DNA from: a virus
IMG/VR virus record: IMGVR_UViG_3300045988_167063
Reading direction: 5' to 3' (one strand)
DNA: 64,000 bases
Shown: piece by piece, positions 1,968 to 50,025 of the stretch
How positions within the stretch are numbered: the first letter of the stretch is position 1
How the letters are laid out: each line of letters opens with the position of its first letter
Program-made: the position numbers and the translations under genes
The notes under the pieces: model-generated
The model's input: the letters and a program-made list of their open reading frames with translations, nothing else
Database searches by the model: none
What the model was told of the DNA's origin: nothing

Positions 1968-1982
1968 AAGTTTATCACCTAT

Positions 1983-2013
1983 AAAAATGTGGGAGAGTAT
2001 AAAACCCTCCCAC
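1983..2013 (-). terminator. rho-independent terminator, second of a tandem pair
   Basis: Stem GTGGGAG/CTCCCAC with loop AGTATAAAACC (plus-strand text), followed by a T5 run on the minus strand. Confidence 0.6.
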
Positions 2014-2019
2014 TATATG

Positions 2020-2048
2020 TAAAAAGAGTAGAGTTTTACCCCTACTCT
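2020..2048 (-). terminator. rho-independent terminator, first of a tandem pair
   Basis: Stem AGAGTAG/CTACTCT followed by a T-run on the minus strand, just after the stop at 2060. Confidence 0.6.
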
Positions 2049-2059
2049 TGAAAGCAAAA

Positions 2060-2380
2060 TTACATTGCTTTATATTTATCAACTTTATATTGAATATGGT
2101 CTATTCTATTTAGAATTTCTGAATGAGTAAATTTCCAAATATTTGTCATAACATCAAGTGTTATCTTATCTGTTATTTCATTGTCTTTCTTTTCTTTAAT
2201 AAGATTTACTACAAAAGTATGCAAACTATCTACATTTGCCATACAACCCTCATAAATCTTAAAATACTCCTCGCTTATTTCAGCATATTCATCTTTCCAT
2301 TCAATAGCCTTATCAATATAGCACTCTGCTTTGTCGATAAAACAATTTATATCTTTAACAAGTTCGGCAATAATTACCAT
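2060..2380 (-). CDS. hypothetical protein (late block)
   Basis: ORF track, 106 aa, co-oriented and tightly spaced. Confidence 0.65.
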   Translation of the reverse strand: MVIIAELVKDINCFIDKAECYIDKAIEWKDEYAEISEEYFKIYEGCMANVDSLHTFVVNLIKEKKDNEITDKITLDVMTNIWKFTHSEILNRIDHIQYKVDKYKAM

Positions 2381-2393
2381 TTAAACTCACCCC

Positions 2394-2828
2394 TTAATGA
2401 AACATTTGATAAACTTCTTTAACTTTTGCTTTTACCATTGAACACTCTTCCATATCATCTTGACATATTTTAGCGAGTTCTCGGTAAACATCATTAACAT
2501 TATTTAAAAAATGTCCTAATTCATCGTGAGCCATTTGTAAATCATCGTCTTGTCTTGTTCTCTTATATTGTTCTTTGTAAGTCTTGTATGAAACAAATTC
2601 ATCCCAAGCATCTGCCAAATAATTGTCAATTTCTGTATGTTTAGCAATACTTTGAGCATTATCATCCTCATCGTATGCTTCACCTTTTATGACCTTGTTG
2701 AGTTTATGTTCCACTTTCATCAAATCCTTTAGATAATCTAAAAGATTTTCAGTAATTGACATATCACTTACCATTTCATATTCTTCAACAATATTTTTAA
2801 GAATTTTTTGGGCAATCTGTTTATCCAT
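2394..2828 (-). CDS. hypothetical protein (late block)
   Basis: ORF track gives 2394..2840. ATG at 2828 lies 8 nt after GGTGG, so that start is preferred. Confidence 0.65.
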   Translation of the reverse strand: MDKQIAQKILKNIVEEYEMVSDMSITENLLDYLKDLMKVEHKLNKVIKGEAYDEDDNAQSIAKHTEIDNYLADAWDEFVSYKTYKEQYKRTRQDDDLQMAHDELGHFLNNVNDVYRELAKICQDDMEECSMVKAKVKEVYQMFH

Positions 2829-3039
2829 TAACATCACCACCTATTTTATTCAAAATTAAATCAAGTTTTTTATCTTGCTCTTCTAAATGATTATGAATAT
2901 CTATAAGCATATTGTGCATATTTTTTTCTAAATCATCTTTGGTTATGACCTTATCATAAGTCATAATTCCCAACATAGTTCCCATTACAGAAACTACATC
3001 AAGAGCAGATATTTCTTGTCGAACATTATTGTTTGCCAT
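2821..3039 (-). CDS. hypothetical 72-aa protein
   Basis: ORF track; only a 1-nt gap from the upstream gene. Confidence 0.6.
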   Translation of the reverse strand: MANNNVRQEISALDVVSVMGTMLGIMTYDKVITKDDLEKNMHNMLIDIHNHLEEQDKKLDLILNKIGGDVNG

Positions 3040-3040
3040 A

Positions 3041-3469
3041 TTAAGACAATTTTGTAACTGTTACATTAGCATTTGTTATTGTAACAGGTGTTCCGTCATT
3101 TTGAATAGTAAGATTAAGTGGAATATTATCAGTAACAGCACAGCAATTTGGACTTACTCTAACCATAAACTGTGATTGAGATAAGTTCATAATTACAGTA
3201 TCAGCAGTAGCAGACTGTGAAGCCTCAAAGCCTTCAATCTGTGTGCCATTACCATACAAATGGAATGTCGCTGTGCCACCTGCCGTTGCGACTGTACTTG
3301 CCGTTGCAGTGAAATCTACAAGATACCAACCTGCCCTATGCAAGCTAATAGCCGAACTTCCTGCCGAATGTCTTACTGTGCAAGAATTACTATTATAATT
3401 AGTTGTAAATACCACGGCACTGCCTGTATTTACTGTTTGTGTAGTATTAGAGAATGTAGTCAAAGCCAT
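3041..3469 (-). CDS. C1q/TNF-like (BclA C-terminal-domain-like) jelly-roll protein, possible fibre tip or receptor binder
   Basis: Pattern FS..TQ.V..GSAV.F...I.H..GS..I.L...G.Y.V.F...A.F.LY.NG..I is typical of BclA-CTD-like domains. Start moved to ATG 3469, after AAAGGA. Confidence 0.5.
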   Translation of the reverse strand: MALTTFSNTTQTVNTGSAVVFTTNYNSNSCTVRHSAGSSAISLHRAGWYLVDFTATASTVATAGGTATFHLYGNGTQIEGFEASQSATADTVIMNLSQSQFMVRVSPNCCAVTDNIPLNLTIQNDGTPVTITNANVTVTKLS

Positions 3470-3530
3470 TATATCAAGTCCTTTCAAGTATTTAGCATAT
3501 CGCACTTATACTGAAATAACTTTATCTAAA

Positions 3531-3562
3531 TAGAAAAATGGCGAGTATTTCTACTCGCCATT
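3531..3562 (-). terminator. rho-independent terminator
   Basis: 11-bp stem AATGGCGAGTA/TACTCGCCATT with a 4-nt loop and a T-run on the minus strand, after the stop at 3612. Confidence 0.7.
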
Positions 3563-3611
3563 ATTATTTAATATTTGGTGCGAGTATGCACTCTGTCATA
3601 TTTTATTTAGA

Positions 3612-4298
3612 TTATGCTACTGTTCCGCAACCATTGCAATTACTGTAACCATATACATTTGTTGGGGTTGTATATGGTGAGCAAGTAATATAAGACGGAA
3701 TTGGGAACGGTCTTAAAAGGTTGACAAGGTTTGCAGACTGTGCTTGCTGTGAAAGTTGGAAGTTTGCAGTCTGTAATTCTCTATCTCTGTCCTCAAGTTT
3801 ATCACGAAGGTCTTGCATTGTATTAGCGTTAATCAATGCACGAGTAGCTTCGCCCTCTGCGTGAATTGCAGTAGTAATTTCGCAAGTGTTCTGTGCATTT
3901 TCATAACGAACTGCATCAATGTTGCGATTGGTTGTGCAACAGCAATCTTTCATTTGATAACCAAGTTCTGTAATGCCACCTGAAACACCATTAAAACCAT
4001 TAAGCATAGTTGTATTCATAGCATAAAAGCCATCACACAAACCATTAGAAATGCCATCAAGTTTATTAATAATTTGGTTAGTGTCAAATCCTCTCTGAAT
4101 ATCAGCCTGTGTTGCATAAGTGCCAACAGCACCATTACCATAGCCACCCCAAGCACTACCTCCACCAAAAAGAAGAATAAACACAATTATAAGAGCGAGA
4201 ATACCACCAGCACCACCACTAAGGAAACCGCCGTTGTCATCATTATTCTTTGTGAGAGCGAGAGCATCTCCAATACTTAAACCATTATCCATTGCCAT
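3612..4298 (-). CDS. membrane-anchored Gly-rich / Cys-rich protein with C-terminal coiled coil
   Basis: ORF track, 228 aa. TM segment ILALIIVFILLF flanked by G-rich runs. SD AAAGGAG upstream. Confidence 0.7.
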   Translation of the reverse strand: MAMDNGLSIGDALALTKNNDDNGGFLSGGAGGILALIIVFILLFGGGSAWGGYGNGAVGTYATQADIQRGFDTNQIINKLDGISNGLCDGFYAMNTTMLNGFNGVSGGITELGYQMKDCCCTTNRNIDAVRYENAQNTCEITTAIHAEGEATRALINANTMQDLRDKLEDRDRELQTANFQLSQQAQSANLVNLLRPFPIPSYITCSPYTTPTNVYGYSNCNGCGTVA

Positions 4299-5399: not shown

Positions 5400-6356
5400 T
5401 TATGCACTAACATTTACTACACAAGCAGTAGTAAGAGTAGTCTTACCCTTTGCTACAATCTCAATAGTAGTAACTCCGTCAGTAGTCTTTGCTGTAACAG
5501 CACCATTATTGTCTACTGTTGCAGATGTACCTGAAGCAGTAAATGTAAGCTTAGTATTGTCAATCAACGAAGGCTGTGTGCCATCTGAATACATTTTATA
5601 AACTTTAATTGTCTGTGTTTCATTATGACCGAGTTCAATATTGCCACCTGCAACTACAAGAGCAGAAACATTAGCAAGCTCATCCTGTCCGTAAATGCAT
5701 TCTGTAATAACTGCATAATAGCCGTGGTCTGAACAGCCTACATTACCTGTAAATGTAGCAAGTGCTGTACCTGAAAGTGAAACAGAAGCAATGCCACTTG
5801 AGGTAAGCGACAAATCTTGTGAGCCTTCAAGTTGGAAATTAGGAATATCAACTACAATATCACCTATTCTTGAGGCATTACTTTCAATTGTTTCGCCTGT
5901 TGCACCACTCTTGAAAAGCGGAATTGTCATTACAGCGTGACAAACAGAAGGAACATAATCTGCATTTACAGTAAATCTACGAGCAGTAGCATCCGAGATT
6001 ACATATTTAATACAAATCGTTGAACCTACAACAAGTCCATCAACTGTTGCTTTATTTTCGCCTTTTGTAAAATCAAATTTCTTATAAGCATCATCAGCTT
6101 CTGTTGACAATTTATACCAACCAATAGTGCCACTTGTAGCAGTAAAATCTTTAGGTGTTTGAGCCACTTCAAGAGTATCTTTCTCTTTTACAGTAAATTG
6201 TTCAACAGTAAGAATATCTGCACCTGCGGTAATACCACCACCACAGCTAAGTGCAATATAATTCAAATCCCAAATTTGGTCTGTAAGTGTAAGACCAAAT
6301 GAGGAGTCGTGATAATACCTGCCGAGGAGAATATTACATTCAAAATAGTTTTTCGG
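5400..6356 (-). CDS. virion (major-tail-like) protein with C-terminal Ig-like Big_2 domain, exon 2
   Basis: Long ORF. The C-terminus TFTASGTSATVDNNGAVTAKTTDG..IVAKGKT looks like a Big_2 domain. The frame is open only 5 codons upstream of the annotated ATG. Joins exon 1 across an intron. Confidence 0.6.
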   Translation of the reverse strand, partial: PKNYFECNILLGRYYHDSSFGLTLTDQIWDLNYIALSCGGGITAGADILTVEQFTVKEKDTLEVAQTPKDFTATSGTIGWYKLSTEADDAYKKFDFTKGENKATVDGLVVGSTICIKYVISDATARRFTVNADYVPSVCHAVMTIPLFKSGATGETIESNASRIGDIVVDIPNFQLEGSQDLSLTSSGIASVSLSGTALATFTGNVGCSDHGYYAVITECIYGQDELANVSALVVAGGNIELGHNETQTIKVYKMYSDGTQPSLIDNTKLTFTASGTSATVDNNGAVTAKTTDGVTTIEIVAKGKTTLTTACVVNVSA

Positions 6357-6905: not shown

Positions 6906-8030
6906 TTATATAAAATAAAAATGCAATCCATATACGGATTGTCTTTCTTTTCTACAAACTCTGCCGACACAATCTTTTAGTATATTCAATGTCTTTTCAG
7001 CTTGAGAAATGCTTTCAAATACTTTATCTTTTTCGACGCAATAAACCTTTTTTCTTTTTATGTTTTTTGAAGGAGTATATAATCCTCTCTTACTATCTTC
7101 AACATTATAGTTTACAAGGTTTAATTTATTTGCTTTTTTTAATAATTTACAAAACTCAAAAGAAGATATTTTTAACTTTTCTGCCATTTCTTTCATTGAC
7201 AATATACCAAGATTGTTATTAAACATATCAACAGCATAAGAAAGTAAATTGTGGTTAATCAATTCATTTTCTAATTTATCCCAATCAAATTTGTTTAAAT
7301 CAAAATAATTAAATAAACTACTATTTAAAATATTATTTTTTATATATTCAAAATCACTCTTAAAACAATTTATTCTAATTATTTTATAGCCGTTTTGAGT
7401 TGCCATTAAATTTTTTTGTCTATCTATTTCTTCTTGATTTATGTTTTTATTAAAACCTATAATTCCCGTTTTATGAAATATTCCATCCATTTCAATTATA
7501 ATTTTATTATTCTCAATTACAAAATCATAAATCCTTCTATTCGACCACTCAAACATTTTTTCTCGCTCAAAAGGAATGTTTAATTGTTTAAGTAAACAAT
7601 ACATAAATCTATTCGGATAACTATATCCTTTCCCACACTTAGGGCAAGCAAATCCTTTATTAACCAAATCTGATAATTTTTGTTTCCTTTCATTGTGACA
7701 AATAGGACAGACCATATCCACCTCTTGTGAACTTCCAAAGGTATAATTATAAGCTTCTTTTTTATTTTTAAAATAAACTAAATATTGTGGATAAATAGTA
7801 GCAAAATCATTTTTTCCAATAACGAGTTTTCTTCCGCCACAAACACCACATCCACTAACACCTCTCATAATAGCATTTGCCTCATTACAAATGCCCTCTG
7901 TCCCACAAATTTTACACTTGTATTTTATAGGAGAGTGTGCATTTTTATATTTGCTAATTATTTTTAAATTAGGGTTATTTTTACTAACCCTTTTTTCAAA
8001 ATCTTTTTGAGATAACTGATTATATGTCAT
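6906..8030 (-). CDS. free-standing homing-endonuclease-like protein (zinc ribbons + Vsr/DUF559-like nuclease core + C-terminal DNA-binding module)
   Basis: CKICG..CGVCG and CPIC..CPKCG ribbons. RIYDFVIENNKIIIEMDGIFH resembles the DUF559/Vsr-fold motif. The tail KVYCVEKDKVFESISQAEK..VCRKERQSVYGLHFYF resembles NUMOD/IENR modules. Start taken at ATG 8030. Confidence 0.6.
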   Translation of the reverse strand: MTYNQLSQKDFEKRVSKNNPNLKIISKYKNAHSPIKYKCKICGTEGICNEANAIMRGVSGCGVCGGRKLVIGKNDFATIYPQYLVYFKNKKEAYNYTFGSSQEVDMVCPICHNERKQKLSDLVNKGFACPKCGKGYSYPNRFMYCLLKQLNIPFEREKMFEWSNRRIYDFVIENNKIIIEMDGIFHKTGIIGFNKNINQEEIDRQKNLMATQNGYKIIRINCFKSDFEYIKNNILNSSLFNYFDLNKFDWDKLENELINHNLLSYAVDMFNNNLGILSMKEMAEKLKISSFEFCKLLKKANKLNLVNYNVEDSKRGLYTPSKNIKRKKVYCVEKDKVFESISQAEKTLNILKDCVGRVCRKERQSVYGLHFYFI

Positions 8031-8037
8031 TATAAAA

Positions 8038-8829
8038 TTAACCGTTAATTTGTTGTATTTTCTGTTCAAAAGACTCTGCGTCTGTGAACATTTCTTTATA
8101 TTTATCAACCCTCTTTTTGAACATAGGATGTTTAACATCGTCTTTAACTTCATATTTAAAAGAGGCTTGTATTATCTTTTGTGCAAGATAAATTTCACTA
8201 TTTATACAATGATTAAATATTTGTTCAAAAGTTCTATAAACCATATTATTTATCTGTTCCATTGTATATCCATTTTTACTCATTACATAAGTTTTCTGTT
8301 CTTCTAATGTTGGATTGTGAACTCCTTTATTAACCATTTTACAATATTTTTCATATTCGGCTTTTACATCAGGATTGACATATCTATCATCATAATCTTT
8401 GTCATTTTGAAATAATATTATCTTTTTTATATCATCAAATTCTTTTGCCGATATAATACTTTCTATAATATCATTTTCACCAAGAACTACAATACAATCT
8501 TTGCCATTATCTTTTGATAAAGCAATATTTTTATGAATACATAATTGAAACAACATTGCAAATAAACTTTGAGTATTTATATCTACTAAAACTCGATTGA
8601 TTAAAAATTCTAAATAATTCATTTGAATAACATCAATATCATTTATTGTATTTTTATCAATTTCTAAAAGTTCTTTACAATTTGCATAAATAGGAAAATC
8701 TTTTACTTTAATGGGGTATATAAATATTTCTGCTCCTTTTTTTAGTTCATAAGGAACAGCATACTCGTTAATAAAATAATTTAATTGCAAGTTATCAATA
8801 TCAACCAATACAACCACCACTTTGAGCAT
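8038..8829 (-). CDS. hypothetical virion/morphogenesis protein
   Basis: ORF track, 263 aa. The 5' end overlaps the upstream gene by 29 nt, so the start is uncertain. Confidence 0.65.
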   Translation of the reverse strand: MLKVVVVLVDIDNLQLNYFINEYAVPYELKKGAEIFIYPIKVKDFPIYANCKELLEIDKNTINDIDVIQMNYLEFLINRVLVDINTQSLFAMLFQLCIHKNIALSKDNGKDCIVVLGENDIIESIISAKEFDDIKKIILFQNDKDYDDRYVNPDVKAEYEKYCKMVNKGVHNPTLEEQKTYVMSKNGYTMEQINNMVYRTFEQIFNHCINSEIYLAQKIIQASFKYEVKDDVKHPMFKKRVDKYKEMFTDAESFEQKIQQING

Positions 8830-9415
8830 TTACATATCTCATTGCCATAGTGAGAGAACGACCGAATATGGTTTTACTATTTGTAAGTCCAATAGTTGAG
8901 CCTGTAACACGATATAATTCTCTGTCAAAAGATAAATAACTACTTCCTATATTTATATCCCTACCATTAAAAACTGCCAAAAACAAACTTTCCATTAAAT
9001 CTGTTCGTTCACATAAAACACCCTCATAATAAACAAGGCAAGTTTTTTCATTTGTTAAGAAATCAAAATCATAACAAATAATTGCACTATTTCTTGCTTC
9101 GGGTACTGTTTGTGAACGATATAATCTAAATTGTGTTTGACTTTGGCTATCTGAAAGAATTGAGCCAACAATAGGCTTTAAGAAAACACGATAATTCTGT
9201 TCATCCGTTTCGCCTGTCCAAATATAATTCCTTTTTTGTTCAAAAGTTAAATTATCTTTATCTAAAGCATCTTTAGTGTCATAAATTAAACACTTCCAAA
9301 AATCTTCTGCCATTTGGCTTTTTTCTTTCATTAAAAATTCTAATATCTTATAAGTTACTAAAGGCTGTTGAGAAAAATCATTATAAGACATTGTATTATT
9401 ACCATTATAATTCAT
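8801..9415 (-). CDS. hypothetical virion/morphogenesis protein
   Basis: ORF track, 204 aa, in the late block. Confidence 0.65.
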   Translation of the reverse strand: MNYNGNNTMSYNDFSQQPLVTYKILEFLMKEKSQMAEDFWKCLIYDTKDALDKDNLTFEQKRNYIWTGETDEQNYRVFLKPIVGSILSDSQSQTQFRLYRSQTVPEARNSAIICYDFDFLTNEKTCLVYYEGVLCERTDLMESLFLAVFNGRDINIGSSYLSFDRELYRVTGSTIGLTNSKTIFGRSLTMAMRYVNAQSGGCIG

Positions 9416-9424
9416 AAACTCTCC

Positions 9425-10684
9425 TTATAGTAAACTCTTTAATTTAATTTTAAGTTCAACATCATCGCAACCATCTGCTTTGAATGTCAATGTTAGTAAG
9501 TTCTTATCCATTTTTAAATTAGTTACTTTAAATCCGTCAATAGTTTCCTCTAATTGATAATGCCTACTATCTGCTCCACTCGGAATACACTGAATAGCAA
9601 TATTTTGTTTTTCGCCCTCAATATAAACACCACAAGTTATTTCTAAACTTTCCATTTCATTTAATTCGGTTACATCACTTGGACTAATAATTATCTTCTT
9701 TTCGGGCAAATAATCATCTACTATGTTAATTGTAATAGTATCGTAAATATTTTCATTATCTGTTAAATATGCCTTTATTTCGGCTTTAGAGCCTTTATTG
9801 CCTATAAGACGATAAATTCCATTACTATCAATAGAAACAGTCTTATTATCGCTTGTAGACCACGATATAGGCATATCTGTAGCTAATTCATTATCTTTCA
9901 TTACATTAGCAGTTAATTGACCTTGAAAACCTTGAATTTGCGAAATATTATCGCTATCAATTTTTACTCTATAATCAACTGCATAATAGTCGCAAACATT
10001 AAGCTCTTTATTGTCAATCGGCAATAATGGACTATAAACAAGATAAATCTTTATCATTGTCACATCTCCATTAGTGCCTTCTTCTTGATTGTAATTATCA
10101 ATCTGTTCGACTTTATAACATTGACTATGTTGAAACATAAATCTTTGATTTAAGTCTATTGTTTTTGTTTTGTCATTTCCTTGAACATAAAGTATCAATC
10201 TCCTGTTCTCAACCGTTGCTGTTTTTGCAACTTGCTGATTTGTACTCGATACTTCATATCCAAAAAAGACCTTTTCAGTCAAAATATTTCCATTACTCTT
10301 ATCTAACCAAGAAATTTCATTATTACAACGAATAAGCTTTGCATTTGCAACTTTTGATAGTTTATTTATTTTATCATAACACAAATAGGTTTCGCCTTCC
10401 CATTTGTATTTTTGCCCCCTATAATTTCTATGAGAACAATCTTTAAATAAAACGGCAATATAATCGCCCATTACTTTAGTTAAGTTAGTAGAAACCTCAC
10501 TAACGCTATCAATATGCACATCAAAACTTTTATATTGTTCATTAAATGGATATTTTTCTTCTTTAATAATTGTATTCAGCGTAGTATCTTCAAAAGTATC
10601 GTTTATCCATTCTTGAGTAATTTCTTTATAATAATCTTTGTTAGATTGAGCCATATTATCTATAAAATTACTATACCAACTCAC
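9425..10684 (-). CDS. virion protein with C-terminal Ig-like (Big_2-type) repeats
   Basis: ISWSTSDNKTVSIDSNGIYRLIGNKGSKAEIKAYL is Big_2-like; a second repeat follows it. Confidence 0.6.
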   Translation of the reverse strand: MSWYSNFIDNMAQSNKDYYKEITQEWINDTFEDTTLNTIIKEEKYPFNEQYKSFDVHIDSVSEVSTNLTKVMGDYIAVLFKDCSHRNYRGQKYKWEGETYLCYDKINKLSKVANAKLIRCNNEISWLDKSNGNILTEKVFFGYEVSSTNQQVAKTATVENRRLILYVQGNDKTKTIDLNQRFMFQHSQCYKVEQIDNYNQEEGTNGDVTMIKIYLVYSPLLPIDNKELNVCDYYAVDYRVKIDSDNISQIQGFQGQLTANVMKDNELATDMPISWSTSDNKTVSIDSNGIYRLIGNKGSKAEIKAYLTDNENIYDTITINIVDDYLPEKKIIISPSDVTELNEMESLEITCGVYIEGEKQNIAIQCIPSGADSRHYQLEETIDGFKVTNLKMDKNLLTLTFKADGCDDVELKIKLKSLL

Positions 10685-16980: not shown

Positions 16981-17556
16981 TTAACCATAATCGTAAATAT
17001 CACTGAAATCATCTAAATCAATTTCAGCATCTTGTTCATCTTTCACATACTTAATATAGACTTTATCACAAAAGTAATTAAACATTGCCAAAGTCATATA
17101 TCTATCCTTTGTAGCTGTACTTTTTTCTTTAACTCTAACACCTTTATCTTTAAATTCTGTTGTTAAAGTAATTGCCTCATTAATAGCATACCTTGTTTCA
17201 ACAAACGGTACAAGGTCATAAGCCTTCTTTTCAGAGGACTTCAATATCCATTTACTATCTTTTTCTTGAAATAGTAATTCCATTTCAGAGTCATCTTTAA
17301 GAAAACTAATTATATTATCTTTAAGATTTTTTCTCATCGCTAAGTGCATATCACTATTGATTTCACTTGTACCAGCAATAGGAATAATTACTTCTTCGGC
17401 ATTAGAGTCCATAGTCCTATTAATTTTATCATTTATGATTTTATCAGAGCTTATTTGTAAAATTTTATCTCTACATACAGTCCACGCAGGATATGTAATA
17501 TCTCTTTCATCATCATATGTTTCAGTTGTCAATAAATCAAAGAAAACATTTCCTAC
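16981..17556 (-). CDS. terL: terminase large subunit, exon 3 (nuclease domain)
   Basis: Begins VGNVFFDLL directly after the intron-terminal G. Continues the MDSKG motif of exon 2. Confidence 0.7.
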   Translation of the reverse strand, partial: VGNVFFDLLTTETYDDERDITYPAWTVCRDKILQISSDKIINDKINRTMDSNAEEVIIPIAGTSEINSDMHLAMRKNLKDNIISFLKDDSEMELLFQEKDSKWILKSSEKKAYDLVPFVETRYAINEAITLTTEFKDKGVRVKEKSTATKDRYMTLAMFNYFCDKVYIKYVKDEQDAEIDLDDFSDIYDYG

Positions 17557-17911
17557 CAATTATGTTATCATATAAGTTTTTTATCTTATATTTCTTATAG
17601 TTGTATTTCCTATAAGTTCGGCGTACCTTTTCATCTAATAAATTTATTTATATAAAAATGACAAGTTTATTTTATTTTTTTGCGTTCCAAAATACATATA
17701 CTTCTTCACTTATTATCATTTATTACTACTAATTATTTATTAGATGCCGAGAACTCTTGGCAAAATTATATTCTATAAAAATAGTTTCATTTGCTACGCT
17801 CTGCGTGTGACTATTCTTTTAAAAATAGCCTTCCACTCGGATTGACATTTCAGTTTTTCCGTTTCTTTCTCGGTTCGATTATATATCACTATATAAAAGG
17901 GCGAAGTTTTC
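17557..17911 (-). mobile_element. ORF-less group I intron (terL intron 2)
   Basis: The 3' end ..CTTATAG-N9-CTATAAG..ATATAAG-N8-CTTATAT-GATAACATAATTG is shared, with compensatory changes, with the introns at 18893-19178 and 24047-24936. The 5' exon ends in GGU. Confidence 0.7.
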
Positions 17912-18892
17912 ACCTTTTGAGTCCATAACAAAATATGTGCATTTATAATCATAAAATAATCTTTTTATCATTACAATTTGTTTTTGAGAATTTAAACCAT
18001 TTTCGGCTTTTATATACTCTACTTTTCTTTGATTTGTTTCTATATCTATATTTCCTAATACAAAAACTGTATTATCGTTTTCTCTACCACCACTAACGGC
18101 AATATCCATTGCCAATACTCTTATTTCATTTTCGTGACTAAAATCATATTTATTTTTAATATTATAATAATAGTCATCATTTGTAGTTGGTAAAAAAGCA
18201 GTTTCAAGCACTTGATTTTTATGAAAATCATCATACAAAAACAAACTACCTTCTGTTTCACCAAGCCACAAATTCAAAAACTCCATTTCAAAATCCAAAT
18301 CATTTGTATTTTCTCGTCTTGTTAAATACTGATTTTTTGTTTGAATTTTATTAGCAACTGCTGTAAATATATCACCTGCAAAAAAGCCATATTTAATTCT
18401 TTTATCTGTGTAATGCTTTCTAACTACTGTTTTTAAATAAGTCCAAACCCAATTATCTTTCGTTCTTGCCGAAGTCATAAATATTTGCTTTGGCTCAATC
18501 ATTAACCCATTAAAACTATATGGCTCAAGCATAGGTTCAACAATAGACTCATAGTCTCTTTTCTTAACAATTCTTGCCTCATCTGTTATAGTTATATTAG
18601 CTCTTGCACCACGACCTGTTTCATTACACGCAACAGCGAATATTTTACTACCATTGCCATATTCGACAACTCTACCACCTGTTGTTTTATCTTTTGTAAA
18701 GTTAATATAGCCATCTGCTCGTAGTTGTTTTAAAATAGGACTTATGCCTTTTTTGTCACTACTTAACAACTTATCAATTTTATCATCAATAATTTTATTA
18801 CTTTGACCTAAAGTAAGCGAAGTAATAGCAATTTGAACTCCGGGTAAAAGCAAAGCAAGGTCATTGGCGAGAACACCTATGGTAAAGGATTT
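17912..18892 (-). CDS. terL: terminase large subunit, exon 2
   Basis: KSFTIGVLAND.. completes the Walker A motif begun in exon 1. Ends ..YFVMDSKG. Confidence 0.75.
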
Positions 18893-19178
18893 CAATTTTG
18901 TTATCGTATAGGCTCTTTATCCTATACTTCTTATACTGTACTAATTTTCGTATAAGTTCAGAGTACATTTTCATACATAAATACAGAGTATGTGGACACT
19001 CTTGGTGATATTATATTCTTCCATTTCAAAAGTTTCAATCACTACTCGTTACAATACTATTAATTTTTACATTAAATAGTTATCTCGGTGTTGTACTTAA
19101 AATTAGTGTAGTTTCACCGATTTTGCCCAATTTGCTTTATAACTATCTATAATTCATTATAAAGGAGCATTATTATTT
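18893..19178 (-). mobile_element. ORF-less group I intron (terL intron 1)
   Basis: Splits IASRGLS|KSF inside the P-loop. The 5' exon GAGU pairs with GCUC 10 nt into the intron. The 3' end ..GTATAGG-N8-CCTATAC-GATAACAAAATTG matches the family. Confidence 0.75.
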
Positions 19179-19418
19179 ACTCAATCCTCTACTTGCAATA
19201 AACGCATAAATATCATATTCCCAACAGTCAAGTAATACTTGTCTTTGAAAATAATGTAGTGGTATTTTTAAATGTTCTTCAGTAAAAATATCAAGATTAT
19301 TAAGATAAAATAATTGCCAATTAGCAATTCTCCTATCATAATCTTTTTTACTCAATTTTTTATTTTCTTTTATTTTCTTTTCTTTTGCCAAGCTAATAAG
19401 TTGTTTTTCGTCAATCAA
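19179..19418 (-). CDS. terL: terminase large subunit, exon 1
   Basis: ..YFQRQVLLDCW..FIASRGLS is an N-terminal ATPase Walker A segment. Confidence 0.75.
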
Positions 19419-20355
19419 GATTATATTTGTCTATGTCATCAATAGATAAATTAAAATCTCTATTGCCTGCCAACATATTTCCTAACGGTCTTAAAACCAT
19501 ATCTTTTTCATATTGATGTACTTTATTGAGGTCATAATATCTGCTTGGCTCTGAATATACATCCTCGACATTATTTTCGTCTACAAGTCTTATCTTTTCA
19601 AACAAAGACTGTTCCGAAGCCGTTTTAGGCTTATTGCTTTCATATTCATCAATACGAAGTTTATTCATATCTCTTATAATTCGATTTTGAACTTTATCTC
19701 TTGTTTCTTCACCACTATATGAACCGTCATCAATTTTTCTCAATAGCAATCTATCTCTACATAAATCACGATAAAGGTCATCTTGCGGTTCATTTATGAT
19801 TTCTACATTTTTTGTATATCTCTCATAGGTTCTTTCAAGATATTGATAATCTTCTGAACTTTCTTGTTTTCCCCAATTAAGTTCAAATTCATCAAGTTCT
19901 TTTTGTCTTAATTCTCGTTGTTCTATTCTACTATCAATATCACTTAAATTAACATTTGTTGCTGATAATTCATTCCAAATATTCTTTTTAGTTTTTGACT
20001 TATGTAATTCAGAAATATACAATCCCAAATAATTGTTCATTCGTTTGCCTTCTTTGCGACCTTCTTTCATTCGGTTTTCGACACCTGCCCAAACCTCAAG
20101 AATAAAAGGAATGTCATTTCGCAAACAAGTATAATAAACGGCTGATTTCATACTACAACCATTTTTAATATAATAATCAATCATTTTTTGACAACAATCT
20201 TTACAATAAGGTGTATGCCCACTTGCAAAAGGTGACCAACTTTCGTAAAAATTAGTCGCACCTCTCATACCACTACACCCTAATTCTGTATTATTGCCGA
20301 GGCAAAGAAACATATCGGTTTCCTTTTTTATGTTTTTAGAAGCCAACGCTTTCAC
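19411..20355 (-). CDS. terminase small subunit candidate (Cys-rich N-terminus)
   Basis: 314 aa, overlaps the terL start by 8 nt. The call rests on position only. Confidence 0.3.
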   Translation of the reverse strand: MKALASKNIKKETDMFLCLGNNTELGCSGMRGATNFYESWSPFASGHTPYCKDCCQKMIDYYIKNGCSMKSAVYYTCLRNDIPFILEVWAGVENRMKEGRKEGKRMNNYLGLYISELHKSKTKKNIWNELSATNVNLSDIDSRIEQRELRQKELDEFELNWGKQESSEDYQYLERTYERYTKNVEIINEPQDDLYRDLCRDRLLLRKIDDGSYSGEETRDKVQNRIIRDMNKLRIDEYESNKPKTASEQSLFEKIRLVDENNVEDVYSEPSRYYDLNKVHQYEKDMVLRPLGNMLAGNRDFNLSIDDIDKYNLD

Positions 20356-20365
20356 CTCTATGTAC

Positions 20366-20399
20366 TAAAAAATAAAAGAGAGAACTTTTGCTCTCTCTT
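20366..20399 (-). terminator. rho-independent terminator
   Basis: 8-bp stem AAGAGAGA/TCTCTCTT followed by a T-run on the minus strand. Confidence 0.55.
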
Positions 20400-20424
20400 A
20401 AATTATATTTTACTAAATCTTAAT

Positions 20425-21621
20425 TTAATTTAATACTATTGTAAAATCTGCCACTTTACCTTTATTTTCCTCATAGCAAATAAGACTTGCAGAAGCGTCA
20501 GCAGACTTTCTTATTCTCATAGAATAATCATCTATACCTACAACAGAAGCCACGCCAATAGCACCTCTACGCACACCACAGTTGGCATATTCATTATAAT
20601 GCTTATGCCCTGCAATAATATAGTCAATATTTATGCCATAAATTTCTCTATAATCTTTAATTGCACGACTTAAATCTTTAACTTCTCCGTGAATACCGAG
20701 AAAATTAAAGCCAGCAATGGTATCATAAATAAATCCTGTTTTATTTTCTTTAAAAGTAAAGTTAGGATTATCTTTATTTTTAATTTTAATGATATTAGCA
20801 ATTATTTTATCTGTTGTTTCACAAAGATGTTCATTCTTTTTACCGTCAAGCAATCTTAATTCATCGTGGTTGCCTGCCGTTTGGTTATAAATAATTTTTG
20901 TATATTTTGATAATTCTAAAAGCCATTCGCCTATATAATTACCAAAGTTAATTGCACTATCAACTACACCATATCTTAAAGACCAAAGTTGAGAATTTCT
21001 TATAAAACCTTCCGTACTATCTCCAAGATTGTTAATGTGTAATTCTTTAATGTCAAACAACTTTATTTTTTCAATAGTTTCAGATAAAATTGTTTCCATT
21101 CTCTGTTCAAAAATTTCAGGACTATATTCATTGATAATTTCATTCATAAGTCCATAAACTTTAATATCTTTTCCATAATGGCAATCTGCAAAATTTAATT
21201 GCCAACCTAATTTGCTATGTTCGACAGGAATAGGTTTAATATTAACAGAGTTGCAATTTTCATTGATTGACTCAATTACTTTTTCTTCAAAAAGTTCATC
21301 TCTTGCATTTTCACGCAACCATCTGTTATATTCAAGTTTTTCTGTTTGTAGTTTCTTTCGTTCTTTTTCAAGTTCCCTTGTTTGTTCTTTTATGTCATTC
21401 AAAAGTTCTTCACTATCAGCAAATTTAGATTGGTTAGCAACCATTATTTTTTGAAAAGATTGATATTTTTTTCTATAAGCACTTTCAGAATAGTTATTAT
21501 CTAATAATTCATTAAGAATTTTTGCTACATCTTGCCAAGTGCCAATAATATCCTTTTCAGAACAGACACGATAAATCAATTCATCTTCTGTTTCGTTTTC
21601 AAATCTCTTATAGGTCATCAT
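20425..21621 (-). CDS. calcineurin-like metallophosphoesterase with N-terminal helical domain
   Basis: Motifs in order: FADCHYG (DxH), NLGDSTEG (GD), AGNHDE (GNHD/E), LGIHGE, IIAGHKHY (GHxH). Confidence 0.7.
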   Translation of the reverse strand: MMTYKRFENETEDELIYRVCSEKDIIGTWQDVAKILNELLDNNYSESAYRKKYQSFQKIMVANQSKFADSEELLNDIKEQTRELEKERKKLQTEKLEYNRWLRENARDELFEEKVIESINENCNSVNIKPIPVEHSKLGWQLNFADCHYGKDIKVYGLMNEIINEYSPEIFEQRMETILSETIEKIKLFDIKELHINNLGDSTEGFIRNSQLWSLRYGVVDSAINFGNYIGEWLLELSKYTKIIYNQTAGNHDELRLLDGKKNEHLCETTDKIIANIIKIKNKDNPNFTFKENKTGFIYDTIAGFNFLGIHGEVKDLSRAIKDYREIYGINIDYIIAGHKHYNEYANCGVRRGAIGVASVVGIDDYSMRIRKSADASASLICYEENKGKVADFTIVLN

Positions 21622-21622
21622 A

Positions 21623-21808
21623 CTATTCCTTTTCGAGTATTGTCTTTATTTGAACTGTGTTCCCAACCATTGTATCTAAAAGGTCAATAATAGGAATTTC
21701 CTTAATATTATCCTTTAATTCAACAAATATGCACAATTCATTATTTTCATTTTTATCCAAAACACCAACAATATCAGTAATTGAATATGAGTCAAATTTA
21801 TGTTTCAT
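21623..21808 (-). CDS. hypothetical 61-aa protein
   Basis: ORF track; abuts both neighbouring genes. Confidence 0.5.
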   Translation of the reverse strand: MKHKFDSYSITDIVGVLDKNENNELCIFVELKDNIKEIPIIDLLDTMVGNTVQIKTILEKE

Positions 21809-22823: not shown

Positions 22824-23072
22824 TATTTAATTCTCCTTTCTATGAAATTTACCTTTAAGGCGATAGCCCACAATTAAGTGGACTATCTTAAAAAATACTT
22901 TGAGAATATAATTGCAATCCCATATTTATTAAACGCATTGGCAATAGCGTTGGAATGTAATAAAGGACATCTCCTCGTTCCCCTTCCATATTACAGACGC
23001 ATTTCAATATCGAAAATTTGGCTTAACCAAGCCATTTTCAAAGCTTTTTCGCAAATAGTTTTCTGCAATTTT

Positions 23073-24046
23073 TTAGTCATTTTCGCCAAAAATAAAGCAA
23101 TTTAAGAATTTTTCTTTGTTTGTTTTATACAAAACATTAAGCATTTTTCTTGTAAATTTAGATGTTGATTTATCAATAGGTCTACCTGTAATATTACTTT
23201 CAAGACCCAAAGCACTTTCAACAAGTCTATTGATTGTCACTAAATTATTTACTTTAACCTTTGAAACATTGTCAATTAACTGTTGAAATTTCTCAATATT
23301 TTTTTCAACATCATTTCCTTGCTCTTTATTAGTTTTTACAAAAGTATCATATTCATCAACGAGTTTTCGTATTTTAGACATTTGCCTATGATTAGGTTTT
23401 CCCTCAATCTTAACAAAAAACTCATTTGTCGGAATAGTGTTTGTTGTACCACTTGGCTCAATCTCGTCTAAAATTTCTTCAAGCCAATTCATAGGACAAA
23501 TTATATCATAGTTAATTCTATCATAAACTTTTTTCTTATTATTTCTAACAATCTCAAAAGACAACTCTACACCATTTTTAGTATACGGAATATCTTTTGT
23601 ATATTTCATAAATTTAGGATAATCACATTTGACTTTTTTTTCTTTGTCATTATTTGTAATTATTGTTTTAGTTTTTTGCATACAAGACATATTTTGTATT
23701 CTGTCTATTTCATCCATTCCGTTAATTTCATACTCTCTTTTACACCCATCAATTATAATTTGGGCAACAACAGATAAAATCACAAAATTATTATACAAAT
23801 CTTCATCTTGTTCAGTCCAATAATAACTCATAGCAAGTTGAGCTAAATTACTCGACCATCCTATTCCGAGCCTTGATTTAGCAAATTTATTATCCATTTG
23901 AGAATAAGCAAGTTTTGTATTTTCGTATGTAATAGAACTTTCTTTTAGTTGATTTACAATAGTAGGAAATTCATCATAACATCTTTTTGCACACTTAACC
24001 ATAATGGGATTATTGGTTGCAAAAATGAAGTCAGAATCGAAATCTG
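23073..24046 (-). CDS. YonO/QDE-1-like single-subunit double-psi-beta-barrel RNA polymerase, exon 2
   Basis: The frame is open only from 24053. Begins (S)DFDSDFIFATNNP, the metal-binding Asp triad. Confidence 0.6.
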
Positions 24047-24936
24047 CAATATGTTATCGTATAGGTTTTTTATCCCATACCTCTTATGGTTTCCCATAAG
24101 TTCAGACTATCTCTTTACCCTCGTCTTATCCGTTAGGGTATTCGGCACTCTTGCAAAGGATTATTGTTTGTCTACTCACCTTGTAGTCGTTAAACCTTAC
24201 TGCCTACTTTTACGACATTCAGCAGTCTTGGTAATTGATTGGCTTATGTGTGTTAATTTTTGCAATATATCCATAGCAAGGCTTATTACATTTTGCCCTT
24301 CTTGCTATAAATCCACTAATTGCATTTATGCTTCCTTTAAGGTTCTGTTTAGTTTTAATCCATTCCGAACAATTCTTTATGCAAGAAAACGATTTTACCA
24401 AATTATCATTTTTATATAAGTCGACAGACTTACTTTTACCATTTTTATCTCCGAGTTTACAAACACTATATTTACCAATATCGGAACTATATCGAACATT
24501 ATCTTTGTGTGTAATCCATTCAAGATTATCAACACGATTATTTGTTCTATTATAGTCTTTATGATTTATTTCTAAATATTTATTTGGATTTGGAATAAAT
24601 GCTTCTGCTACTAATCTGTGAACAGATACATATCTTTTATTTCCACACATTTGTAAACAAACTACTTTATATCCATCTGAATTTGTTTTTGGCTTTTTAA
24701 TCTTTTCATTCCTTACAATATATCCACATTTTGCTTGTGGATGAGGAACTTTTCTACAAAGAGATTTTACTCTTCCAAAATTACTAATTTGATAATAGCC
24801 TAAAAATCCATCTATATCCTTCCATTGTTCTTTCAAAAAATCACCTCCTTGTTTATTTTTTTACACACACTTAGCGTTCCAATTTTCACCGAATAGTTTT
24901 AGAAAAGTGTTTCCACTTAACCGACCCATTTTATTA
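24047..24936 (-). mobile_element. group I intron carrying an HNH homing endonuclease gene
   Basis: The 5' exon ..AAUGGCU pairs with GGGUC 9 nt downstream. The 3' end CTTATGG-GAAA-CCATAAG..GTATGGG-N8-CCTATAC-GATAACATATTG matches the terL intron family. The last nucleotide is G. Confidence 0.75.
24219..24836 (-). CDS. intron-encoded HNH homing endonuclease (NUMOD4 + HNH_3)
   Basis: N-terminal EQWKDIDGFLGYYQISNFGRVKS (NUMOD4). HRLVAEAFIPNP..INHKDYNRTNNRVDNLEWITHKDN (HNH). Confidence 0.85.
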   Translation of the reverse strand: MKEQWKDIDGFLGYYQISNFGRVKSLCRKVPHPQAKCGYIVRNEKIKKPKTNSDGYKVVCLQMCGNKRYVSVHRLVAEAFIPNPNKYLEINHKDYNRTNNRVDNLEWITHKDNVRYSSDIGKYSVCKLGDKNGKSKSVDLYKNDNLVKSFSCIKNCSEWIKTKQNLKGSINAISGFIARRAKCNKPCYGYIAKINTHKPINYQDC

Positions 24937-26746
24937 AGCCATTAGTCCTATCTTGTAAATCCGTTCCAATACAATTCACAGCCACAATATTCTCACTAAA
25001 AGGAAAATATTTTTGCATCTCTTTTGAGTAAGTATTTTTTAAATAACAAATATTATTTGGACTGTTTTGAGGTGACCTTATACCACATAAATATTCTCCG
25101 TCATTAAATCTTGTAGTATAACATTGAATAGTTCCCTGCTCTTGTTCAAAGCAAGGGTCTTTAGTCCAATCCTCGCCAACTGCATATAACAGTAAAGCAT
25201 AGGGGTTTCCACACATTGTCAAATTATCTGCATTGACAGTTATTTTGCCTTTACGCAATTTTTCAACATAAGCAAAAATAATTTTTCGCTTTTCAGTTCT
25301 AAACCACTTACTATTTGCAAAATCTTTATTTTGATTATATAAATCTGCCATCATTTCATAATGATTTATTTCATTTGCATTTAATCTTAAAAACTTTTCA
25401 AACTCATCGTTATCTTGCTTTAACTTTTCAACATACGCTACACTATATTGAGCAAGTTCTTTAATTTCATCTTTACTACAAGGCAATGAATTAACCATTT
25501 GATAACTCATTTGTTGAACATTTCCGAGTTTACTTTTATGGTCTGTTTTAACGATACCAAAAATGCTGTTGTCAGCCTTTATTCTATCACACCAATATTT
25601 ATAAGGGTTATCCCCCATAAGCTCTGTAAACTTTTTCCATTTAATCGCATTGTCTGTTGTAATAACTTTAATATTTTTTGCTAAATGTTTCACGCCAAAC
25701 ATATCTTCAATTTCAAAAGTTTCATAATCAACATTGTTTTCAATACACCAATCTTTTAAAAATTGTTGTAAATTAGTTCTAAATCCACACATTTTAAAAA
25801 AATGATTTCTTAACAACATCATTCCGTTGACATATTTAGGCATTATAGAAGTTTCAACTAACCCCATACCATCCCATAAAGTATTTTTTAGATTAACATT
25901 TTCTTTATGTACGACACATTTTTTAGTTGGTACTCGTATTTTTTTAAATACTCTTTTAGGCTTTTTACCTTGACTTAAAGCTTTTTGTCTATTAATTTCA
26001 GTTTTTTCTGTATCAATAACTTTTTTCTCAACAAAATACTCTTCAGCTCTAACAATATTTGCCATTGTTTGAAAATAACTATCTTGGTCTTTTAAAATTA
26101 AAATATCCTCAACAGGAATATGAATGTTCCCTACAATAGTGCTTGTAGTTAAAGGGGCATAAGCAGACATTTCAACAATTTTTGCCTTTTTTTTATCCAT
26201 TTTGTTCCCCAAACCCATAGTAAGCCATTCGTATGCTGTTTTATAATACTTTTCGTTAATAAAGATAGATTGCCCGACTTTAGCTTTTGAGGGCGTTCTA
26301 AAGAGCATTTTATAATGAATTGTTTGTGTCTTTTTTATTGCTCCGTTCTTATCTCTTGTCACATAATCAATAGAAACACCATTTTGATAATATTCATCTC
26401 TTATTTCTTCCATACTCTTTTTTATAAATTTATCTTTATTCTCGTGTACTGTATTTAAAATTTCATTTAATCGTTCTAATGATTTTTCATCTGCTTTTTC
26501 AATAAGCGTTTCTATCTGTTGTACTTTTTCTTCATAAGACTTTGAGCCAAAGTCAAATTCAAGACAAACAATATCTCTTGTAGACTCACCTTTGTAAACA
26601 TTAAGACCTTTATTTATAATATAATTACTAAACAATGAATTATTAAACATTGCGTCAGTATAATCAAGCCTATCCCTTACTCCGAGATTATATTCATAAA
26701 GCGTTCCTGCCTTAATATTTTTAATTTTTATTCCAAACTCGGACAA
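24937..26746 (-). CDS. YonO/QDE-1-like single-subunit RNA polymerase, exon 1
   Basis: TTG start after AAGGAGTGA. The C-terminal CGIRSPQNSPNNICYLKN...IVAVNCIGTDLQDRTNG resembles the beta-prime segment NRaPtlHr..iqaf...i.l.PlvC.afNADFDGD. Confidence 0.6.
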
Positions 26747-27030: not shown

Positions 27031-27174
27031 TTCGTTCCACACGATTTCGTTATTCTCCTTTCGTGTTATAGATTACTTTTATGCTTTGATATTGAAATTT
27101 GTAAGCACAAAAGTAAATTTTCAATCTTTTCTTAATTATACCATATTTCATTGTAAAAGTCAAGTGTTTTTTTA

Positions 27175-27199
27175 CTTTACCACTTTTTTACTTTACCAC
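27175..27199 (-). repeat. two tandem copies of CTTTACCAC (= GTGGTAAAG on the minus strand), 16-nt period
   Basis: ctttaccacttttttactttaccac. The same 9-mer recurs at 45170 and 45232. Confidence 0.7.
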
Positions 27200-27207
27200 T
27201 TTATTTT

Positions 27208-27304
27208 TTATATATTTATATATACTTTATAATATAATATAATACTTATATATATATATATATATATATTATATTTATATTAAATAATAATAATTAATAT
27301 AATA
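27208..27304. repeat. pure A/T, (TA)n-rich low-complexity tract
   Basis: About 100 nt with almost no G or C, including tatatatatatatatatatat. Confidence 0.9.
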
Positions 27305-27388
27305 ATATAGACAAGGAATGATACCAAATCCTGAAAAATAATGCAAATTTCCATTATTTTAATATGTTTTGTCAACGATAAAAGGTAC
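27305..27388 (+). repeat. ~84-nt repeat element, copy A (ATATAGACAAGG...TCAACGATA..GGTAC)
   Basis: Aligns by eye with the reverse complement of 36994-37074 and partly with 37117-37182. Confidence 0.7.
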
Positions 27389-27471
27389 TTATTTTAAAGA
27401 GGCACTATAAAAATCAATAATGAAATAATATATAATTTACATCTTTTTAAAGAAATCTTTGGGAAATTATC

Positions 27472-27570
27472 GGCTTTTCGTAAGAAAAGCTTTAATCGAA
27501 AAAGTTAAGACACGATAGTGGCTTAATTTTTTTGTCAAAAGTTAAGGAGCGTAGCGACTTAACTTGCGAC
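27472..27570 (+). promoter_or_regulatory. array of three hairpins in the divergent control region
   Basis: GCTTTTC-gtaa-GAAAAGC; GTTAAG-N11-CTTAAT+T7; AAGTTAAG-N11-CTTAACTT. Confidence 0.5.
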
Positions 27571-27593
27571 AGCCTTGTGAAATCTTATGAGGA

Positions 27594-27715
27594 ATATTTA
27601 TTTTTAATATTTATAAATTAAATTTTATATTATATAATAAAATATATAATAAATATATTAATATATAAATTATAATATAATAAGATAATCTAATAAATAA
27701 TATAAATAAAAACAT
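27594..27715. repeat. pure A/T low-complexity tract
   Basis: About 120 nt essentially free of G and C. Confidence 0.9.
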
Positions 27716-27790
27716 TTTAAACATATTCTATTAACTTGATATGTAATATGATACAGTTAAATTTCAATCACAATTTTTTTAAAAAAGTTC

Positions 27791-27819
27791 TTGACATTTA
27801 GATAAAACTATGGTATAAT
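27791..27819 (+). promoter_or_regulatory. sigma-A-type promoter, first early promoter
   Basis: TTGACA-17 nt-TGgTATAAT. Confidence 0.8.
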
Positions 27820-49956: not shown

Positions 49957-50025
49957 GCAGATATAGTCCAAGTAAGGCATCTATTAACTAAATAGAAAAT
50001 AAGAGTTCAATTCTCTTTATCTGCC
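49957..50025 (+). tRNA. tRNA-like element with an aberrant anticodon loop
   Basis: Acceptor GCAGATA/TATCTGC, canonical T arm AAGAG-TTCAATT-CTCTT, 3-bp D stem. Anticodon arm TCTAT-TAACTAA-ATAGA lacks U33. No encoded CCA. Confidence 0.45.

Follow-up and report, generated by a model that had tools for sequence, protein, structure and literature searches.

A Probable YonO-Lineage RNA Polymerase Gene Split by a Putative Mobile Group I Intron Just Ahead of Its Predicted Catalytic Aspartates

The IMG/VR virus record IMGVR_UViG_3300045988_167063 comprises 64,000 nucleotides (nt) of phage DNA, and this whole stretch is referred to here as the window. On its minus strand, two open reading frames (ORFs) separated by an insert appear to be the two parts of a single gene. 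The 927–amino acid (aa) product obtained by removing the insert is, with a probability that we put at roughly four in five, a single-chain two-barrel RNA polymerase of the lineage of YonO, the RNA polymerase of phage SPbeta, and its gene is split by a mobile group I intron directly before the residues DFDSD, the predicted metal-binding Asp triad.

The split gene and its splice junction

The first exon starts with a TTG codon at 26746, has the sequence AAGGAG just upstream, and encodes the same MSEFGIKIK with which its homologs begin. It is part of a 609-aa minus-strand ORF (24917..26746) that terminates ..CGIRSPQNSPNNICYLKN..IVAVNCIGTDLQDRTNG, to which six read-through codons add LIKWVG before the stop codon. 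The downstream frame opens at 24053, right after a TAA at 24056..24054, and reads HIADFDSDFIFATNNP to 23073. When U24937 is joined to C24046, the result is an in-frame coding sequence of 2784 nt that encodes 927 aa and reads ..TNGSDFDSDFIF.. at the junction. No other join gives N-G-x-D-x-D-S-D while leaving U as the last base of the 5' exon and G as that of the intron. Other joins, such as one with the intron ending at G24044, produce the wrong length or the wrong residues compared to all homologs.

The junction can also be read in phages that lack the insert. In intron-less phages with 97% DNA identity to the window, the gene is uninterrupted at this point and reads ..DRTNGSDFDSDFIF.. A homolog search of the spliced product, which covered 5.8 billion proteins, found 24 clusters (P0001-P0024; 698 aa, 97-99% identical to the window product) that cross the junction uninterrupted as ..DLQDRTNGSDFDSDFIFATNNP.., and the frame is likewise intact in L001, a contig about 97% identical to the window in DNA that has no insert at this position (site 1). 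Homologs without an interruption, 890-970 aa long and 56-67% identical, extend over 99-100% of the spliced product. A preliminary description of this DNA had given the end of the 609-aa ORF, the opening of the second frame, and the join; all of its sequence statements hold against the ORF list and the translation, and the U24937/C24046 junction that it predicted matches exactly the sequence of the natural intron-less alleles (P0001-P0024, L001).

The polymerase family and its motifs

The spliced product belongs to a family of 1241 clusters at 50% identity, as counted in an exhaustive HMMER search (E<=1e-3). One full-length homolog, P0036, is 63% identical to the window protein and was used for the AlphaFold model and to head the alignments. 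By BLASTP, YonO matches P0036 with an expect value (E) of 0.004 over 406 residues, and the alignment pairs ILRSPH with AIRNPH and QFDNDGD with NGCDFDSD. The preliminary description had suggested a profile search against YonO. With hhalign, 54 family members and 22 YonO relatives align over 524 columns with a probability of 99.6% (E 3.4e-24), and DFDSD is paired with YonO DNDGD and R-S-P with the R-S-P of YonO.

In the family alignments and hhalign, the invariant residues of both families coincide in the same columns. In P0036 numbering, D300-G falls on YonO D248-G, R321 and K326 on R265 and K270, K377 and K380 on K315 and K318, Y426-Q427 on Y353-Q354, R568-x-P570 on R491-x-P493, D616, D618, and D620 on D534, D536, and D538, G677 on G592, and D714..K717 on D624..K627. 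The window-numbered equivalents are D292, R313, K318, K369, K372, R557, P559, D605, D607, D609, G666, D703, and K706. None of the triad residues D616, D618, and D620 varies among 42 family members; in the larger set of 54, the same is true of D618 and D620, and the conservation of D616 is at least 90%. The fourth position of the triad is Ser, not Gly, throughout the family, and the first Asp codon of the triad in the window lies 2 nt downstream of the intron.

Eight residues are common to all two-barrel polymerases, namely R-x-P, the triad, a further Asp, and two Lys (PMC2919709). The R-x-P equivalents in Rpb1 are R446/P448, and Rpb2 D837, K979, and K987 are the Asp and Lys of the beta barrel (PMC2919709). 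In YonO, changing the triad Asp to Asn abolishes activity (PMC5467207). The preliminary description had recognized an R-x-P motif and an Asp triad in the spliced protein, and both turn out to be conserved in the family and aligned to their YonO counterparts. The Pfam family RdRP (PF05183) is reached by two of 42 family members, with a best E of 1.3e-8.

Predicted fold

The AlphaFold model of P0036 has a predicted local distance difference test (pLDDT) score of 90.6 and a predicted template modeling (pTM) score of 0.86. When the model was compared to the PDB with Foldseek, all 25 matches at E<=1e-3 were maize or Arabidopsis RDR2, QDE-1, or the Thermus phage gp64/gp62 RNA polymerases. The RDR2 and QDE-1 matches have E of 2e-12 to 5e-8 and template modeling (TM) scores of 0.37-0.47, and multi-subunit beta-prime and Rpb1 chains come after them as weak matches. 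No primase or helicase fold appeared at E<=1e-3 in this search. A double-psi-beta-barrel fold had been proposed earlier, and two-barrel polymerases are the only structures that the P0036 model finds at this threshold. Among the viral models of BFVD, a metagenomic phage protein named "RNA dependent RNA polymerase" matches best (TM 0.71, E 6.5e-51); P23-45 gp64 is also matched, and phi14:2 gp66 weakly. By analogy with YonO, the spliced product would synthesize RNA on a DNA template.

The intron and its ORF

The insert belongs to the group I introns and contains a homing-type ORF of the HNH class. The ribozyme lies in two segments (Table 1), and ORF-less sibling copies of the same ribozyme, 276 nt long, are 98.5% identical to the two segments (24936..24867 plus 24248..24047) and score 84.2 and 83.9 bits on the Rfam model RF00028. 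In the window, RF00028 matches 24083..24319 with 37.9 bits (E 9e-8, in a local 1.4-kb search), which is under the gathering score of 50, and an Rfam scan of the whole window at the gathering threshold, and even at E<=0.01, misses the intron of the polymerase gene. The ends follow the group I rules, with U24937 as the last base of the 5' exon and G24047 as the last base of the intron. In the predicted fold (identical 5' end), the P1 helix is formed by GGCU/UA of exon and intron (here and below, a slash marks the insertion point) and UGGGUC, with a U.G wobble at the splice site. A search for a P10 helix, in which the guide region would pair with the shared 3' exon CAGAU, found none.

The 205-aa ORF of the intron contains NUMOD4 (E 8.9e-16) and HNH_3 (E 5.6e-11) domains according to Pfam and matches PHROG families of HNH endonucleases, down to E 9e-43. 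It is placed in the terminal loop of a hairpin that belongs to the ribozyme's 5' half, and at its end 27 nt and the stop codon overlap the 3' ribozyme segment. The HNH-bearing group I intron of the preliminary description is thus matched by a ribozyme lineage that scores 84 bits, by a NUMOD4/HNH_3 ORF, and by the existence of intron-less alleles. The 3' core of the intron (24052-24120) matches, over 64-69 nt at 87-89% identity, unannotated DNA in 63 records of phages of Streptococcus thermophilus and S. suis. These stretches, which we take to be introns, suggest that the ribozyme lineage is widely shared among phages of low-GC Gram-positive hosts.

Selection on the exons and the footprint of homing

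The polymerase genes of the window and L001 differ at 73 of 2784 nt, with 54 synonymous and 13 non-synonymous codon differences. The comparison with L086, a contig 18% apart that has an HNH intron at the same site, gives 276 synonymous and 161 non-synonymous differences, and both exons are intact. Both exons are under purifying selection. The first ATG of exon 2, at 24002, is 9 codons past the last Asp codon. Without splicing the Asp triad would remain untranslated, because exon 1 stops earlier and the first ATG of exon 2 lies beyond it. Taken together, the intact exons, the purifying selection, and a triad that needs splicing argue that the intron splices.

Right at the insertion, the intron-plus and intron-minus alleles have 3 synonymous differences within 6 nt (GGC U/CA GAU vs GGG UCG GAC), in contrast to the overall divergence of 2.6% between the window and L001. 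Such clustering would be expected from co-conversion or target immunity; the target of the PhiPA3 gp210 endonuclease is likewise protected by silent recoding (PMC11620839). The HNH protein of the window intron would presumably cleave or nick the intron-less site, for which the clustered differences and, in the sampled loci, the presence of HNH cassettes at site 1 and never at site 2 are indirect evidence.

A population of introns at several sites

The best 80 matches to related loci in IMG/VR are uninterrupted genes only, and intron-bearing loci were located by an exact 20-21-nt intron pattern. These loci reveal a second intron site, which is empty in the window (Table 1) and lies four codons before the invariant D703..K706 (..SVVA/Q(I or V)IID..). 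The ribozyme at site 2 is 94-99% identical to that at site 1 and is usually an ORF-less intron of 276 nt (L001 5356-5631; L084 2822-3097; L087, L089, and L099). The flanks of the two sites are alike, aaTGGCT/CAGATTt at site 1 and tgTGGCT/CAGATTa at site 2, and the occupancy of site 2 varies among phages about 97% identical to the window.

Several combinations were found. The window, L086, and L093 have the HNH intron at site 1 and an empty site 2, and L001 has an empty site 1 and an ORF-less intron at site 2. In L084, L089, and L099, as well as in L088, which ends inside the site-2 copy, both sites hold an ORF-less intron, and L087 combines the HNH intron at site 1 with an ORF-less intron at site 2. 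In L091, L094, and L095, site 1 is empty and the site-2 intron contains a GIY-YIG-like ORF of about 314 aa (L091 6671-7921). The GIY-YIG assignment has a Pfam E of 0.0016, which is below the cut-off, and is backed by homing endonuclease PHROGs. The HNH and GIY-YIG-like cassettes are found in one and the same loop, bordered in both cases by GUGUGU..AAGGAGGUGA and, at the opposite end, by AAUUAACACACAUAAGCC; these common flanks include a Shine-Dalgarno sequence. Among the loci sampled, site 1 alone has HNH cassettes and site 2 alone has GIY-YIG cassettes.

One further contig, L092 (~6960-9675), goes from the site-1 5' splice site through one HNH intron to the site-2 3' exon and is without the 284-nt middle exon that encodes the Asp triad. 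This structure reflects either recombination between two intron copies or a collapse of the assembly.

Insertions are also found in more distant relatives. Of the 150 best family representatives, nine break off exactly at the triad, and the contigs of four such members (L100-L103, 27-51% identical) were examined. In L102, an ORF-less group I intron (5711-5996; 73.5 bits in Rfam) interrupts N-G-C/D, which is the window position. L100 (~1850-3000), L101 (~2490-3520), and L103 (~3430-3740) have inserts at D-x-D-S/D that are preceded by U, have G as the last base, and are followed by CAGAU; their guides fit their own 5' exons (GAUCG for CGAUU, GGGUC for GACU), and the L101 insert carries an ORF with NUMOD4 and HNH_3. 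The yonO gene itself is split in SPbeta-like prophages of Bacillus velezensis (L104 5376-6660, GCA_007678125.1; L105) after ..NNFTID/FAKTLF.., between the invariant D and K, by an insert of about 1.3 kb that contains a GIY-YIG/NUMOD3 ORF, is preceded by U, and ends in G. Rfam has no match for this B. velezensis insert, and the ORF-bearing introns of L085, L091, L100, L101, L103, and L104 go undetected by it.

One could consider that a single ribozyme lineage has moved between three or more places in or near the active-site codons (NG-S/D, DxD-S/D, and A/QI), all of them U/CAGAU, with its guide retuned to each new 5' exon (GGGUC for GGCU and GACU; GAUCG for CGAUU) and its HNH and GIY-YIG-like cassettes exchanged. 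To us, the chances that this is so are about even. If true, the polymerase gene would be a natural, still active system for the ectopic transposition of group I introns, and co-infecting gut phages might compete, by means of endonucleases, over an essential polymerase gene. A literature search for YonO and introns found no paper on an intron-split yonO or on multi-site introns in genes of the YonO family.

Genomic context

The GC content of the window is 24-36%, with about 29% around the polymerase gene, and the strand switches near 27.5 kb, with minus-strand genes below and plus-strand genes above. The features of the polymerase gene and its neighborhood are collected in Table 1. The portal gene is next after the terminase in minus-strand order, so that the polymerase, HU-like, 61-aa, YonJ, YonG, YonF, and portal genes follow the SPbeta order yonO-yonN-yonK-yonJ-(yonH)-yonG-yonF-yonE. 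The two HU-like neighbors had already been noted in the preliminary description, and phrog_379 and PF00216 (the latter on the L001 ortholog) bear them out. YonO is a DNA-dependent polymerase that transcribes the SPbeta late operon from upstream of yonK (PMC5467207). The idea of a late transcriptase in the window phage gains support because the gene order is identical to the yonO..yonF block of SPbeta, and transcription of the late genes by the spliced polymerase would be the natural reading by analogy.

Table 1. Features of the intron-split polymerase gene and its surroundings (window positions)
Feature	Position	Strand	Remarks
Exon 1, YonO-like RNA polymerase gene	26746..24937	minus	Codons 1-603 and first base of codon 604; ORF list and translation
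Group I intron	24936..24047	minus	890 nt; preceded by exon base U24937, last base G24047
Exon 2	24046..23073	minus	Two remaining bases of Ser codon 604, codons 605-927, and stop
Beta-like barrel region, invariant D292-G293, R313..K318, K369..K372	25628..25882	minus	Aligned to YonO-family invariant D248-G249, R265/K270, K315/K318
IRSPQNSPNN, R557-x-P559 motif of beta-prime-like barrel	25052..25081	minus	Invariant R568/P570 in family, aligned to YonO R491/P493
D605-F-D607-S-D609 codons, predicted metal-binding Asp triad	24030..24044	minus	Aligned to YonO D534/D536/D538
5' ribozyme segment	24867..24936	minus	98.6% identical to ORF-less intron positions 1-70; includes guide UGGGUC
3' ribozyme segment	24047..24248	minus	Catalytic core (..AAGAGAUAGUCUGAAC..), terminal hairpins, final G; 98.5% identical to ORF-less intron positions 75-276
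Putative HNH endonuclease ORF, 205 aa, intron-encoded	24836..24219	minus	TTG start, AAGGAGGTGA upstream (own Shine-Dalgarno)
Second intron site, empty in window	between 23763 and 23762	minus	..SVVA/QIIIDGCK..; 284 nt downstream of site 1
Two HU-like DNA-binding protein genes, 189 and 148 aa	21808..22823	minus	yonN position; phrog_379; PF00216 on L001 ortholog; weak BLASTP to YonN
61-aa ORF at yonK position	within 16981..21808	minus	Gene order
YonJ-like exonuclease	21621..20425	minus	BLASTP YonJ 33%, E 1e-55
YonG-like gene	20355..19411	minus	BLASTP YonG 25%, E 4e-12
YonF-like large terminase	19418..16981	minus	Split twice; spliced form vs YonF 30%, E 3e-58
Candidate sigma-70-like promoter, TTGACT-17-TATAAT with TG	27163..27135	minus	11/12; consensus scan only; upstream of 58-aa ORF and polymerase gene
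Terminator-like hairpin	23019..23034	minus	Just past polymerase stop codon; consensus scan only

The consensus scan also yields a candidate plus-strand promoter of the sigma-70 type at 27791-27819 (12/12, with an extended -10), and in the AT-rich divergent intergenic region 27135-27819 two candidate promoters face the two gene blocks. The terminase gene contains two ORF-less inserts on the minus strand. The first (18893-19178, 286 nt) lies inside the Walker-A codons (ASRGLS/KS) and is absent in L001, in whose flank about 8 synonymous positions are recoded; the second (17557-17911, 355 nt) is absent in L084. Both are preceded by U, have ..AATTG as their last bases and 3' hairpins in common with the polymerase intron, and neither has an Rfam match. 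With both inserts taken out, the terminase product has 598 aa and can be aligned to SPbeta YonF from end to end. Among the structural genes, a 415-aa ORF (6906-8153, minus strand) matches the HNH/homing endonuclease PHROGs phrog_4538 (E 5e-54), phrog_559, and phrog_9084 and may be another mobile nuclease, either free-standing or intron-borne. Rfam reports two transfer RNA (tRNA) genes, at 49187-49257 and 49956-50027; ARAGORN calls the second only, as a tRNA-Ser with the unusual anticodon ACT.

Points against the proposed reading and alternative explanations

Several observations weigh against a YonO-type transcriptase split by a functional group I intron. The polymerase protein itself is without a Pfam, PDB-sequence, or named PHROG match: Pfam gave no credible match for either exon product or for P0036, the spliced protein and the 54-member profile found no sequence match among all PDB chains, and in PHROG the unnamed family phrog_8308 alone is matched. 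Identity to YonO is only about 18-20%, and the two superfamily-universal lysines of the beta-like barrel are not mapped one-to-one. The predicted model has modest global TM-scores (0.37-0.47) to the solved two-barrel enzymes. The window's own copy of the intron is below the Rfam gathering score (37.9 vs 50), because the 618-nt ORF cassette splits the model. As for late transcription, no candidate late promoter could be proposed, and the genes after the polymerase are closely spaced or overlapping, compared to a 1.7-kb gap before yonK in SPbeta.

A further point of this kind concerns the template. Related genes in Enterocloster phage PMBT24 and in Thomasclavelia phages carry the annotation RNA-dependent RNA polymerase, and so do the best BFVD matches; the paper on PMBT24 contains no discussion of the polymerase gene. 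Together with the eukaryotic RNA-dependent polymerases at the top of the Foldseek list and the Pfam RdRP matches of two family members, this could mean that the spliced enzyme copies RNA rather than transcribing DNA. We regard this as unlikely. The annotations derive from a similarity of fold that YonO also shows, and YonO was shown to be DNA-dependent (PMC5467207). Structures of QDE-1 with DNA templates exist too, according to PDB titles, and the window gene belongs to a double-stranded DNA phage, at the yonO position ahead of the late genes.

It is also conceivable, with a probability that we consider very small, that the gene is not spliced at all, in which case it would be dead or would encode an enzyme in two pieces, the 609-aa and 309-aa products. 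Gene callers do report two separate proteins (the P0027 group), and the Rfam score of the window copy is below the threshold. However, the triad stays untranslated without splicing, and the exons are intact and under purifying selection in intron-bearing lineages 18% apart. The ribozyme, moreover, differs very little from copies that pass Rfam with 84 bits. A third alternative, in which the fold is unrelated (primase, helicase, or structural protein) and DFDSD is present by chance, could draw on the missing Pfam and PDB sequence matches, but profile-profile comparison, structure, and synteny all indicate YonO and the two-barrel polymerases, and this explanation, which has next to no probability left, is refuted to the extent that computation allows.

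Proposed course of expression and homing

Based on the evidence for an intron-split polymerase of the YonO lineage, a sequence of events can be proposed. The polymerase gene would be transcribed, probably by the host polymerase, from the sigma-70-like promoter upstream. In the transcript, the ribozyme would pair the exon sequence GGCU with its guide, forming the U.G pair at U24937, where it would cut with guanosine; U24937 would then be ligated to C24046, which follows the terminal G24047. This would restore GGC U/CA GAU and with it ..NG S DFDSD.. In co-infected cells, the HNH/NUMOD4 protein would cut or nick the intron-less alleles of relatives, and repair would copy the intron together with a few flanking bases. 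The spliced enzyme, using DNA as its template, would transcribe the downstream packaging and structural genes, by analogy with YonO and given the shared gene order.

Significance and comparison with known systems

YonO relatives in phages of Firmicutes and HNH group I introns in phage RNA polymerase genes are already documented (PMC2919709, PMC5467207, PMC11620839). What is added here is a name for a large unannotated family and a set of polymorphic introns at multiple sites; the current understanding is not overturned. The family, found mostly in gut metagenome phages and without a Pfam model, gets a function; its phages most likely have a YonO-type transcriptase of their own for late genes. 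The active-site codons are a repeated landing place for mobile introns, and as a consequence gene callers split or truncate the gene in many assemblies. The polymorphic system of two sites and two nucleases could also serve experimental work on how introns move and on interference between phages of the kind shown for PhiPA3.

Of the known enzymes, YonO of SPbeta is a single chain of about 840-930 aa, as is the window polymerase, and the two share the invariant D-G, R..K, K..K, Y-Q, R-x-P, D-x-D-x-D, and I-D..K. The position of the gene is the same, ahead of the HU-like, YonJ, YonG, terminase, and portal genes. The triad is DNDGD in YonO and DFDSD in the window polymerase. The N- and C-terminal regions of the two proteins are not alignable, and the C-terminal Cys cluster of YonO falls outside the aligned region. 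Unlike the window gene, SPbeta yonO has no intron, and the window phage differs from SPbeta as a gut-metagenome phage of 29% GC with two HU-like genes. The best structural matches are QDE-1 and RDR2 (PDB 2J7N, 7Y7P, 7W82, 7ROZ), which are also single-chain two-barrel enzymes with a triad of the DxDGD type (PMC2919709). Their identity to the window polymerase is about 10%, and they are eukaryotic silencing enzymes with RNA templates.

On the side of the intron, the group I introns of phages of Gram-positive hosts, such as Streptococcus thermophilus phages, have the RF00028 architecture in common with the window intron, whereas the genes they interrupt differ. Mobile introns are known in the genes of multi-subunit phage RNA polymerases, including 201phi2-1 gp273/274 (PMC2919709) and PhiPA3 gp211/209 (PMC11620839). 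In PhiPA3, gp210 is likewise an HNH homing endonuclease within a group I intron, which lies in the virion RNA polymerase subunit gene gp211/209 (PMC11620839), and the protection of its target by silent recoding parallels the synonymous differences at the empty site of L001. The PhiPA3 enzyme, however, is a multi-subunit polymerase of a jumbo Pseudomonas phage, and the insertion is not reported to be at the Asp triad. Competition between phages has been shown for PhiPA3, whereas for the window intron it is a conjecture.

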